From assembly GCA_965233585.1 (NCBI GenBank), contig CBDDTI010000228.1, positions 1-17,857 on the forward strand: 17,857 nt of DNA, in the 5' to 3' direction. The position numbers were made by a program, and so were the translations under genes. The DNA is from a bacterium (GTDB lineage: Bacteria > SAR324 > NAC60-12). Below the pieces are notes generated by a model, which saw only the letters and a program-made list of their open reading frames with translations, searched no databases and was not told where the DNA came from. Positions 2,380-13,458 of the stretch are shown here, piece after piece. Each line of letters opens with the position of its first letter. Position 1 is the stretch's first letter.

Positions 2380-5300
2380 TTATTTACAAATAGGGCATTT
2401 AGATGATTTGTTGTTGACAATAACACAATTTCCTAATGATAAAGTGTGATATCCGCAATTTAAAATGTGTCTTTTGGAATCCATTGCTGATAACGCAATC
2501 TTTCTTTGAAAACATGTCCGAATTTTATGATTTTTTGATCTTAAGTTTTTGAAAGATTTGTAAATTAGAACAGCCTGTTTCAAACATTTTTTGTAATCGT
2601 TATAGGTTAATTGCTTTTTTATGCTAGATTTTTTTAAACCTTTGCAAATTTTCTTTTCTTCCGTTTTGTTTTTGTCTGAAAAATCAGTAATTTTCATAGA
2701 ATAACATTTTGGACGTAAGCCTATAAAATGAGTAATAGCTGCTCTGCCTTTTAGTTCGTCTTTGAAGTAAAAAAGCTGATTGGCTCTACTGTCATCAAAA
2801 AGAGGATGTTGTTTGGGGTACTTTGAAAAATCAAATATGTGCTCCAATTTTTTCATTTCCCTTTCCAAGTTGTTGCATCTTACTTTTAAAAGAAAAGAAT
2901 CTGTGTCTGAGAAACATAAAGACACATTTTCTTCGCCAAAATGTTGTTGAATTGTGTCATAATACGATCTGTACATAAACAACTTGGACAATTCCAAAAT
3001 AGAAAATCCAACAGCTAAAGGCTTCCTGAGCTCTATTATTGCCGGCTTCTTGTTGACAGCCACCAAGTTTTCATTGATGATTTGAAAACTGTTGATGTGT
3101 TGACCAAGACTGGTTTTCCTTAAGCTCTGTTCATCACCACAAAGGATCACTTCAGAGTAATTTCGAACATTTTCTGAAATGCAGAATAAGATTTATTTAA
3201 TAAAGAAAATTGATTATGTGCGCAATCACCTCAGCTAACTAGCCGTCCCATATCACATTTCATTTTCCTCTGTAATTAGCAATGTACTATAATTTACTTC
3301 AATTTGAAATCATTCCTTTTTTAAAGCCCGACCTAAACGGACATCAAAAATTCCAACAAAATCAACACTAAGTCAAAATGGATAAAAAAGATCAGGAAAA
3401 GAGCAAAGCTTTTTGGTTAAAAGTAATAGAATCAGCCCAGGAGGAGGAAACTTCAAGTCCGACTTCTGGCAGTAGCTCTACCGGGGCTGCGGCTGGGGGA
3501 GCATGGTCATCTACTAAAACTGAGGGAGGATGGTCATCTTCTGGGGCTGTGGGTGGAGGATCATGGACATCTTCCGAGCGTCCCGTGGCACCTGCTTGGC
3601 CATCACGGACTCCGTACAAGTCCGTCCCACGAAAATCAGGGTCGGAGTCATGGAAGAGCGCATCTACTGCTGGGGTCGGGGGCGGAGAAGCATGGTCATC
3701 CACTAAAACCGGAGGAGCATGGTCATCTTCTGCGGCCTTGGGTGGGGAATCATGGTCATCTTCCGAACGTTCCGTAGCACCTGCTTGGCCATCACGGACC
3801 CCGTACAAGTCCGTCCCACAAAAATCAGAGCCGGAGTCGTGGAAGAGCGCATCTACTGTCGGAGCCGGGAGTGGGGGAGCATGGTCATCTACTAAAACTG
3901 GAGGAGCATGGTCATCTTCTGGGGCTGTGGGCGGAGGAGCATGGTCATCTGCTAAAAATGAGGGGGAATGGTCATCCACTAAAACTGCAGGAGCATGGTC
4001 ATCTTCCGCGGCCTTGGGTGGGGGATCATGGTCATCTTCTGAACGCTCCGTGGCACCTGCTTGGCCATCACGGACCCCGTATAAGTCCGTCCCACAAAAA
4101 TCAGAGCCGGAGTCGTGGAAGAGCACATCTACTACCGGTGCTGGGGGCGGGGGAGCATGGTCATCTTCTAAAACTGGAGGAGCATGGACATCTTCTGGGG
4201 CTGTGGGCGGAGGAGCATGGTCATCTGCTAAAACTGGGGGGGCATGGTCATCTACTAAAACTGGAGGAGCATGGTCATCTTCTGCGGCTTTGGGTGGAGA
4301 ATCATGGCCATCTTCTGAGCGACCCGTAGCACCCGCTTGGCCATCACGAACCCCGTACAAATCCGTTCCACAAAGGTCGGAGTCGGAGTCACGAAAGCAG
4401 ACCTCTCATCGCGTGTCATTTGATTTGTCTTCACAATCAACACAAAAATCTAAACCAGCGCCCTATCGTCACGTGGAACCTTCACCAACACCGGAAGTGC
4501 GTCAAGTAACGGCATTTCCATCGGTGTGGTCTCCGTCTACAGCTCGAAAAGTTACAAAAAAAAATTAAAATTTAAATTTGATCATTTTTCTTTTTTCTTT
4601 TTGATTACAAAATAAACGCATTATTTTATAAAAATTGATTTTTCAAAAAATTGCGTACTTGATTAATTCATTTTGCGAATTTTAAATTTAATATTGATCT
4701 AATATTATGAATATTTATGAGATAATTTGCTAATTAAAATGTAAAGGTTTGGAGATTTATTTGCTAAAATTGACAAAACCATGCGGGAAAATTCAAAACA
4801 AAATTTAAAGAAGGAAGAGGAGAAGGAGAAGAAGGAAAAGGAAAATGAACAGGGTAAAGTTAGGAAGGATGAGGAGGGGGAAATACGAGGTGTTGAGGGC
4901 GAAATGGGTGGAAGAGGAGGAGGAGGAGAGGTTCAAGCTGCTGCCGGACCCGCCAGTGAGCGAGACACCACCGCGTGCACCACTGATGTGGGGCGGTGGC
5001 CGTCTTAGACGGTTTGCCAGAGGCTTGATCATGATGATCAGGACGGCCGCCGCCTCCGTCGCCGACTTTGTTGTTGGCCGTCCGGACGTCAACCCTGCTG
5101 ACGTCATCTTCGCCGACGTCATCCCCGCCGACGTCATCCCCACCGACGTCATCCCCGCCGACGTCATCCCCACCGATGTCATCCCCACCGACGTCACCCC
5201 CACTGACGTCATGCCCGTCGACGTCAGCCCCGCCAACGAAGCCGACATTGTTGAAGATGACGATTTTGATGAGGCTAAGTGTGTGGTTGGTGCCGGCAGG

Positions 5301-12064: not shown

Positions 12065-13458
12065 TTAAACCGAAGTGGGCGGATGCAAAACAGAAGAAGT
12101 AGATTTTGAAGACTCCTCTTGAGCGGTGGTGACGGAAAAAAGAGGGTTGGAAGAATCATTGAAAATTTGAGATCGTCGTCTGTCAAATATAGAACGTGAA
12201 TATAACGGAGTTGGGTCATCTTGAGCGGTGGTGACGGGAAAAAGAGGGTTGAAAGACTCATTGAAAAATTGAGCCCGTCGTCTTTCGAGCGTAGTACGTG
12301 GATACAACGGAATTGGACGAATCACTGGTTGAAAATGAGACTTCTGAAAATAAAAAAGTAAATGTATGAATATAATGAACAATTATGAAAATAAAAATAT
12401 TTTTACCGCCAAATCCATCAAATATGATTCATCAGTGTTCATTATTTTGTTGCATGTTTTTGGTTCTGAATTGACAACAGCTGGAGAAGAAGGAGCGTCC
12501 AAAACTTCAACATTTGTTTCAGAAGTTGAATCTTGAGTGGTTTTCTCTCGACGAAGTGTTGACATTTCATAAAACTGAAAATAGATAGGAAAATTATAAT
12601 TTTTGTAAAACAAAAATTTTAAAATAAAATACTTACTTCAGAATTGGGTTGATTGTGTTGAGTTAATTGGTTATTCAATCTCCAAAATTTAACCGTTAGG
12701 ACCGTCACCAAAAGACATACGATCATTAAAATAATGATTACTAATAATTTAAATCCGTCTGCAAAATAGTAATATGAATATTAGAGAAAATAAATGTAAA
12801 ACTGAAACAAATGAGACTTACTGTCAAAGGTAAATTGTTCAAGCAAAAATTCACCAAATGTCATCTTTGGAATAGAGATTGAAGGCTTTGAAGTGGTGAT
12901 GGTAGAGGTGATTGTTGCGGAGGGTTTTGTTGTGAATGTGGGGCTGGTGGTTGAAGTAGTAGGAGTGGTAGTTGAGGTAATTAATGTAGGTGAAGAGACA
13001 GTGGTTAATGGAGTTTTAGAGGTGATTGTTGCGGTTGTGTAACTAGTGGTTGATACAGTCGAAGTTGTAGGCATGGAGGTTGGTACAGTGGTGGTGGTAA
13101 AGACGATTGATGAAGTTGAAGAGATGATAGTTGGTGAGGTAGAAGAAACAGTAGTTGTGGATGTGGTGCTGCTAAACAATGAAGTAGAGGTAGTTGTGAT
13201 AGTAGTGGAGCTCGAGGTGGTGATTGTGGTGGTCGTAGACGGCACGGCGGAAGTCGTAGTGATTGTGGTTGTGGTAGAAGCAGTAGTTGTGGAGCTGATG
13301 GTCGTCAATTGGTTGGTTACAGTTGAGTTGATGGTGGAATTAAAGAGGGGGTAAAATCCAGAAGACATTTTTAAAATATTTTCAAAAAAAGAAAGGTTTT
13401 GGGCAAAGGAATTTTGTGTCAAAAAAATGACACAAAAAAACGAAATAAAAAATTTCAT
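12065..13458 (-). CDS. Spliced 401-aa type I membrane mucin-like protein: join(12822..13458, 12637..12758, 12407..12574, 12065..12343)
   Basis: Signal peptide MKFFISFFCVIFLTQNSFA, T/S-rich ectodomain, TM LLVIIILMIVCLLVTVLTV in exon 2. Introns of 63, 62 and 63 bp are GT-AG and in phase. The tail has a duplicated 34-aa unit and ends -TSV. Confidence 0.85.

Follow-up and report, generated by a model that had tools for sequence, protein, structure and literature searches.

The stretch of DNA considered here, 17,857 nt long (contig CBDDTI010000228.1, positions 1 to 17,857, of GenBank assembly GCA_965233585.1; GTDB lineage Bacteria; SAR324; NAC60-12) and referred to below as the window, very probably holds part of a Polinton/Maverick (adintovirus-like) element, likely from an arthropod host, in which the DNA polymerase gene PolB is a genuine six-exon gene with introns that are sub-family-wide. 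The gene is colinear with intron-less homologues, its interruptions are conserved in position and phase, and its exons are open. Sequence comparison gives good support to a PolB that host splicing renders intact, and to a lineage which screens based on open reading frames (ORFs) would discard. Under the proposed mechanism, host RNA polymerase II would transcribe the gene in the nucleus, after which four introns of 59-66 nt and a fifth of 2322 nt would be excised by the U2-type spliceosome of the host. The resulting enzyme, 1134 aa long, would have the full set of exonuclease and polymerase motifs as well as an HNH insert. Intron gain would have taken place within the family, followed by occasional loss with exact boundaries, possibly via cDNA.

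PolB gene model and junctions in homologues

The initial annotation had rebuilt a stop-free 1134-aa PolB by removing five phase-matched GT-AG introns, with junctions at ExoII, motif A and motif B, and both proposals are borne out by a gene model obtained from a script enumerating phase-matched GT..AG pairs and from inspection of the junction sequences. PolB lies on the minus strand, and its exons, which span 8351..2383, total 3402 nt or 1134 codons. The start codon (ATG 8351-8349) encodes the Met at which relatives P0003, P0011, P0031 and P0055 also begin. Exon 1 (7093..8351) carries ExoI (FCDFECV), an HNH/endonuclease-VII insert (Pfam Endonuclease_7, 8.9e-6; PHROG endonuclease VII, 2.4e-7) and the first half of ExoII; a PDB sequence search with this exon returned no useful match. 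Intron 1 (7034..7092; 59 nt, phase 2, GTAAGA..TTTCAG) leads to exon 2 (6477..7033), which contains the second half of ExoII and ExoIII (YCSLDVVLL). Intron 2 (6416..6476; 61 nt, phase 1, GTAAAT..AAATAG) and intron 3 (6105..6163; 59 nt, phase 1, GTAATT..TTTTCAG), the latter inside motif A, enclose exon 3 (6164..6415), an in-frame open piece, as is exon 4 (5929..6104). Intron 4 (5863..5928; 66 nt, phase 0, GTAAAT..TTTTCAG) includes an in-frame TGA. Exon 5 (5496..5862) carries motif B (KLFANSTFGK) and is separated by intron 5 (3174..5495; 2322 nt, phase 1, GTAAGT..ATTTCAG) from exon 6 (2383..3173), which contains motif C (FSDTDSF) and KCY (KxY) and is followed by the stop codon (2382-2380).

All in-frame pieces are free of stops, as are the four split codons, read by eye, and ExoI, ExoIII, motif C and KxY are all visible in the pieces. 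Intron 1 cuts HNAQG|YDLHL, which corresponds to ExoII; intron 3 cuts YID|ANNLYG, corresponding to motif A; and intron 5 lies four residues past NSTFGK (NSTFGKFI), corresponding to motif B. The short introns have a GC content of 0.14-0.30, against 0.32-0.39 in the exons, and stops occur in most intron frames. When two genes to the right of PolB (genes B and C, discussed below) are included, all 11 of the 11 introns start with GTAA[GAT] and end with [CT]AG; the announced ten introns of 54-66 bp are recovered at 54-66 nt, intron 5 alone being longer. The spliced product is a predicted protein-primed family-B polymerase, colinear with full-length Polinton-type PolBs of 1100-1400 aa. The warning that ORF-based annotation would miscall the gene also proved sound, as none of the six stop-to-stop PolB pieces matches DNA_pol_B_2 at E<=0.01, and exon 5 alone (8.4e-6) reaches 25.4 bits against a cut-off of 25.8.

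Homologues were gathered by a full HMMER search with exon 1 (2425 at E<=0.001) and by word-index searches with the exon 6 ORF (520 at E<=0.001, up to 93% identity) and the exon 2 ORF (68), and an additional search yielded 2 long homologues. All 340 listed proteins were aligned against the window by tblastn; a first comparison had comprised 152 homologues. Identities per junction class are tblastn means and those of single relatives come from the search tables, so that the two scales can differ. In full-length distant PolBs (26-41% identity) adjacent residues flank every junction, that of the 2.3-kb intron included: residue 1025 of P0016 aligns to 5497 and residue 1026 to 3174, and P0030 is joined likewise at 961/962. 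None of the excised segments aligns as coding sequence in the 340 proteins, and the intron-less relatives are exactly colinear.

The behaviour of relatives at each junction separates into a few classes. At intron 1, 93 proteins are continuous (all at 26-37% identity), 50 start no more than 30 aa before the acceptor (55-98%) and 17 end no more than 30 aa after the donor (24-76%). At intron 2, 54 end within 30 aa after the donor (27-98%) and nine are continuous (31-59%), while intron 3 is bridged by 23 continuous proteins (30-37%), with four ending after the donor and eight starting before the acceptor. Continuous proteins number 54 at intron 4 (29-62%) and 79 at intron 5 (30-74%), and those starting at the acceptor 20 (36-69%) and 26 (36-89%), respectively; intron 4 also has two in-frame read-throughs. 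Leftover classes (long heads or tails, gaps) hold 14, 30, 17, 2 and 5 proteins for introns 1-5. Dozens of closer relatives (55-98% identity) are represented by ORF fragments with ends exactly at donors and acceptors.

Translated splice sites can be read at the ends of these fragments. Of the eight exon-1 relatives inspected, six end in ..HN..G (..FFHNAQG) followed by a stop, which is GG|GTAA translated. Exon-2 relatives begin ..FRYD, ..YRYD or ..NRYD, corresponding to ..CAG|A, and end ..YY[LI]G (..YYLG) plus K or N before diverging completely, corresponding to G|GTAA. Relatives starting at the intron 4 acceptor read MFLQQHDQFP.., and exon-6 relatives begin ..FQITENVRNY, ..FFKISENVRNY or ..FFTENARNY, which is ..CAG|AA translated. 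Two proteins, P0310 at intron 2 and P0175 at intron 4, read through in-frame intron copies, their inserts opening with translated GTAAT and closing with translated ..CAG. Intron-less relatives supply the joined sequences, reading ..STFGKFIENVRNY.. (e.g. P0168, P0170, P0187) and ..YLGIPGLSFD.. (P0325), and the window's exon ends and split codons predict both STFGKFIENVRNY and YLGIPGLSFD exactly.

A comparison of intron positions across relatives, which the initial annotation had proposed as a check, shows introns 1, 2, 4 and 5 at common positions and phases in diverged relatives, while intron 3 is shared by few (P0325, P0310). Intron 1 is present in every examined relative above about 40% identity; introns 2, 4 and 5 are found in many relatives and are precisely absent from a few. 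P0325 (59%) precisely lacks intron 2 and, like P0310, ends just past the intron 3 donor; P0187 (62%) lacks the adjacent introns 4 and 5 together, and P0161 lacks intron 5. The exact absences in P0187, P0161 and P0325 form the pattern expected of cDNA-mediated intron loss.

Genes beside PolB and the number of introns

The window is mostly AT-rich (GC about 0.30-0.36), the exceptions being 3400-5350 and everything right of about 14450, which are GC-rich; Rfam and tRNA scans of the window gave no matches. Every recognisable gene from about 10243 to the left window edge belongs to one minus-strand array, ordered along that strand as a 344-aa ORF, a 239-aa ORF, the six PolB pieces (8360 down to 2380), an ATPase, a 126-aa ORF and a 406-aa ORF, and the element continues past the edge. 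The P-loop ATPase (1624..2316, minus strand) is putatively A32/FtsK-like, with Walker A GPTSSGKT and Walker B LVVFDD; a PDB sequence search and PHROGs gave no useful match, and its single-sequence AlphaFold model has a pLDDT of 47.9. The 126-aa ORF (1201..1578, minus strand; codon score +0.24), which has a hydrophobic, Arg-rich C-terminus, is probably what had been called a pX-like gene, a putative label that follows the adintovirus paper (PMC8502044). Both are single intron-less ORFs, as first described. The 406-aa ORF (2-1219, minus strand) is cut by the window edge, and its length is therefore at least 406 aa. Two C2H2-type fingers and an internal 111-bp repeat (710-916) are present, and the codon usage is similar to the element's; a PDB sequence search gave no useful match, and it was not capsid-like in the searches made.

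Upstream of PolB, the 239-aa zinc-finger ORF (8407..9123, minus strand; C2H2-type fingers, Pfam zf-Di19/zf-C2H2) is homologous to an N-terminal domain that is fused to PolB in some 25 homologues (e.g. P0017 1-195, P0039 2-197). In the window it ends in TGA, followed by two AATAAA signals and then 52 nt to the PolB ATG. A join by splicing to exon 1 is ruled out, as 8404 to 8346 lacks any AG; the sole frame-matched pair (8462/8339, 124 nt, weak donor) would remove conserved residues, and read-through or frameshifting is blocked by stops. Because P0003, P0011, P0031 and P0055 start at the exon 1 Met, the splitting of this domain into a separate upstream cistron appears to be a family trait. The arrangement is relevant to the question of which part of a Polinton PolB acts as terminal protein. 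Further upstream, the 344-aa ORF (9212..10243, minus strand) is of low complexity with a coiled-coil-like C-terminal end and a codon score of +0.22 in frame. It has no family match, and it may be a Maverick coiled-coil protein, an idea taken from PMC2646287. Between the array and gene B, a 107-bp unit occurs in three tandem copies (10227-10547; 82% and 65% identity to the first), which might act as a divergent promoter region or else represent a subterminal repeat belonging to the element.

Beyond this repeat lie two accessory genes, identified with those of the initial annotation by intron number, intron size and the end coordinate 13458, and each proposed there to carry three introns. Gene B (10746..11960, plus strand, 344 aa) has exons 10746-10947, 11010-11491, 11556-11768 and 11823-11957, separated by consensus-like GT-AG introns at 10948-11009 (62 nt), 11492-11555 (64 nt) and 11769-11822 (54 nt). 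Gene C (12065..13458, minus strand, 401 aa) has exons 13458-12822, 12758-12637, 12574-12407 and 12343-12068, with introns of the same kind at 12821-12759 (63 nt), 12636-12575 (62 nt) and 12406-12344 (63 nt). Removal of the three introns turns each gene into a single ORF, and the six introns have a GC content of 0.14-0.30. When scored with a codon table derived from PolB and the ATPase, each of the four exons of gene B is positive in the predicted frame and negative in the others; gene C exons 3 and 4 are positive, with other frames negative, and exons 1 and 2 are near zero. Gene C is coherent as a type-I membrane protein only once spliced, then showing a signal peptide, a Thr-rich mucin-like domain, a transmembrane helix and, in the tail, two repeats of NPLF, a motif reminiscent of NPxF/Y sorting signals. 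The repeats stem from a 102-bp tandem duplication in exon 4 (12117-12316), which gives two ..NPLF..VTTAQ.. copies in the cytoplasmic tail. No family, homologue or Atlas relative was found for either gene; the globular portion of gene B, when searched against the Atlas, gave a best score of 0.87, a lead only. The "regulatory" label that these genes had been given has no basis, gene C being a mucin-like membrane protein and gene B an orphan.

Phase-matched GT-AG borders are cheap and not evidence alone, because 7-20 frame-preserving GT..AG pairs of 30-200 nt are available per junction (only 0-2 of them consensus-like) and the intron-like motif GTAA[GAT]..54-66 nt..T-rich YAG is no more frequent in the window (17) than in 200 block shuffles (20.6 +/- 4.2). 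Motif enrichment was accordingly rejected as evidence for introns. An introner origin of the ten short introns was also rejected: in 45 pairwise comparisons of intron cores the best local score was 16, a value reached or exceeded in 120 of 200 shuffles, and with a shuffled maximum of 16.1 the introns have nothing in common beyond composition. The PolB introns exceed chance because of the homologue evidence, and the other six introns are without such evidence. Of the 11 introns first claimed, then, the five in PolB are backed by homologues, and the six in genes B and C are indicated by ORF restoration, consensus sites and codon usage; the latter are probably real, yet not tied to the Polinton.

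An explanation that comes close to an even chance is that the PolB introns are genuine and the element's own total is below 11, genes B and C being captured cargo or host genes beside the element. Neither gene is linked to Polintons by any homologue, family or Atlas relative, the recognisable element genes form one array that ends near 10243 and is followed by the 107-bp repeat, and no terminal repeat pair marks the element's ends. The abundance of frame-preserving pairs points the same way, as do nematode Mavericks, in which introns are reported from cargo and not from core genes (10.1101/2022.07.12.499685). On this reading the six introns would carry no information on the biology of Polintons. 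Genes B and C are, however, similar to PolB and the ATPase in codon usage and GC content, although the host genome may share both; their introns agree with those of PolB in length and in splice sites; and the AT-rich block extends past them to about 14440, before a GC-rich retroelement.

Intron 5 and the integrity of the element

Intron 5 has AT-rich ends and two GC-rich blocks, at 3400-4560 and 4850-5350, the second containing a 15-bp repeat (x10). An antisense ORF (3378..4568, plus strand, 396 aa) occupies the first block; it is Ser/Gly/Trp-rich with 276/189-bp tandem repeats, possesses its own ATG, stop and AATAAA (4611-4616), and has no Pfam match. All repeat periods are multiples of three, and the differences between repeat copies are biased to the third codon position (23/49), which is modest evidence that the ORF codes. 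The distribution of intron 5 was placed on a tree of the exon-6 region (62 rows, excluding rows <200 aa and rows <55% identity save four outgroups), with SH-aLRT support only. In the window's clade 13 rows have the intron, one lacks it and one is of unknown state; in a second clade six have it, three lack it and 11 are unknown; and in a third 22 lack it and one is unknown, the outgroups also being without it. Three changes suffice on this tree, against means of 16.5 and 21.0 when the labels of the present group and of the absent group are each shuffled; the interruption is therefore inherited in the sub-family and is not damage private to the window copy. Its history may comprise one gain and exact losses, or several gains.

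It is unlikely that the window copy is dead, a short family intron 5 having been enlarged by a 2-kb GC-rich insertion with an antisense gene that blocks splicing or causes premature polyadenylation. Such an insertion is suggested by the length of intron 5 (2322 nt against 54-66 nt for the remaining ten introns), by the GC content of the insert (0.45-0.67 against about 0.33 around it) and by its complete set of ATG, stop and AATAAA. The donor GTAAGT and acceptor ATTTCAG are nonetheless intact, the exons on either side are open, with 93% identity to relatives, and it is common in animal genomes for a long intron to contain a nested gene.

Several other points weigh against a functional, spliced PolB within an element of this kind. 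Both the length of intron 5 (2.3 kb) and its antisense ORF may be confined to this copy, where they could hinder expression, and the tree was built by a quick method, with outgroups on long branches. Many close exon-1 relatives are short, the closest (77-86% identity; P0007, P0008, P0011, P0019 and others) being short fragments, and P0019 shifts frame relative to the window; decayed family copies are therefore common beside intact ones. The relatives are ORF predictions from assemblies, in which miscalled starts and contig ends can mimic interruptions, so that a state of "intron present" is indirect, and PolB splicing itself is inferred here from DNA, as are expression in the nucleus and whether introns were gained or lost. 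The Pfam matches of the ATPase (ATPase_2 1.8e-4, Pox_A32 9.1e-4, FtsK_SpoIIIE 5.8e-3) all fall under their cut-offs. No capsid gene or protease was found in the window by Pfam and PHROG scans, which included no dedicated Polinton capsid profile and covered a cut element. Nor does the window hold a terminal inverted repeat pair, the longest inverted pairs being no more than 35 nt and of low complexity or local, and at least one element end lies outside. No element integrase is seen in the window either. The sole rve ORF (16843-17856, minus strand) lies in the GC-rich block (0.5 vs 0.33), with in-frame stops and retrotransposon-like neighbours. It belongs to a single GC-rich frame with three in-frame stops (15451..17856, minus strand), in which Integrase_H2C2 and rve are followed by a gag-like zinc knuckle and a protease-like stretch, with a weak DUF3678 match (0.0072). 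This frame, which is taken here to be BEL/Pao-like, is probably debris of a long terminal repeat (LTR) retrotransposon and not the integrase of the element. Within the same GC-rich block (14440-17857) a 217-bp unit is duplicated at 14656-15082. The word "intact" in the initial annotation applies to the PolB and ATPase ORFs and not to the whole element, of which the window shows no integrase, capsid gene, protease or terminal repeat.

A host-domesticated polymerase family with host-style introns, neither mobile nor viral, is a very improbable source of the same features. Conserved intron positions and open exons are how a host gene behaves, and the absence of an integrase, capsid gene and terminal repeat from the window would suit it; against it, relatives at 55-98% identity lie on separate contigs and fall into many clusters, in which the near-identical members number up to 104, broken and intact copies coexist, and the polymerase is adjoined by an ATPase and a small virion-type ORF. 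That PolB is a decayed pseudogene, its GT-AG intervals chance matches around stops and frameshifts, is hardly credible, since the unenriched motif count and the many frame-preserving pairs at every junction that would favour it are set against same-phase interruptions with translated GTAA and CAG ends recurring in dozens of 55-98% relatives with open exons, and against joins matched exactly by intron-less relatives.

Host, known systems and significance

The Atlas clusters nearest to exon 6 are eukaryotic, Arthropoda being the most frequent assignment among the few members with a record, and the named matches (36-37% identity) are from a spider and a dragonfly; an arthropod is accordingly suggested as the most likely host. 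The window resembles animal Polintons/Mavericks, among them the proposed adintoviruses, in its protein-primed PolB, which combines Exo I-III and Pol A-C with an insert of HNH type, and in the adjoining putative A32/FtsK-like ATPase, the small ORF with a hydrophobic basic C-terminus and the arthropod relatives. Unlike other Polintons, it carries the N-terminal domain as a separate ORF and shows no integrase, capsid gene, protease or terminal repeat.

A full-text literature search found no account of conserved spliceosomal introns within Polinton PolB, and an earlier annotation of such introns may exist. Exon-intron drawings for some invertebrate Polintons may have been given by Kapitonov and Jurka in 2006. 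Published surveys describe intact vertebrate Mavericks as intron-less, "in agreement with Kapitonov and Jurka" (PMC8097293), and nematode Mavericks as having intron-less core genes, with introns in GC-rich cargo only (10.1101/2022.07.12.499685); the window PolB, with five sub-family-wide introns, differs from both as so described. In the text of the adintovirus paper "intron" occurs a single time, as part of a group II maturase label, and "splic" does not occur (PMC8502044); the capsid paper contains neither (PMC4028283). In a further nematode survey, fragmented ORFs were counted as pseudogenes and a pPolB of at least 900 aa was required (PMC10748475). Dinoflagellate maverick-polinton-like proviruses are populated by introners (PMC11957031), and like the window they combine spliceosomal introns with retained replication and morphogenesis genes. 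Their introns are copies of transposon-like introner families, whereas the ten short introns of the window are not.

Outside the Polintons, Ginger1 transposase genes contain 1-4 introns (PMC2836005) and likewise represent a mobile-element enzyme gene with canonical GT-AG introns at positions kept among families. The enzyme of Ginger1 and of the P element is a cut-and-paste transposase, unlike the self-synthesising polymerase of the window. The P element is a DNA transposon with a spliced transposase gene under tissue-specific splicing control. Adenoviruses, which are nuclear and related to Polintons, express their E2B polymerase and terminal-protein precursor from spliced, host-processed mRNAs. 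The coding body of E2B is essentially one exon with short leaders, whereas the introns of the window PolB interrupt the catalytic domains themselves.

In surveys of Polintons, Mavericks and adintoviruses, long uninterrupted ORFs are the usual sign by which a copy is judged intact. A sub-family with five conserved PolB introns would count as a fossil, and estimates of the number of potentially active elements and of their host range would be too low. That introns are conserved within the catalytic core also speaks for expression in the nucleus, driven by Pol II, and for a long stay in a single host lineage. Because three introns are precisely present or absent in close relatives, the family offers a small natural setting in which to study how a multicopy element gains and loses introns. 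A bolder extension, decidedly doubtful as it stands, would see a widespread arthropod Polinton lineage dependent on the host spliceosome for replication, in which core introns were gained and then precisely lost by reverse transcription without the element ceasing to be active, one intron serves as an antisense cargo slot, and regulated or tissue-specific splicing of the P element kind sets where the polymerase is made and hence where replication of the element is possible.

The separate N-terminal ORF, the antisense ORF in intron 5 and the retrotransposon-like integrase are observations that go beyond the initial annotation. Next to gene C, two overlapping minus-strand ORFs (13754-14411; 101 and 130 aa) have positive codon scores, and one contains a hydrophobic segment. 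With candidate short introns nearby at 13779-13728 and 14453-14382, they may represent one further spliced gene.

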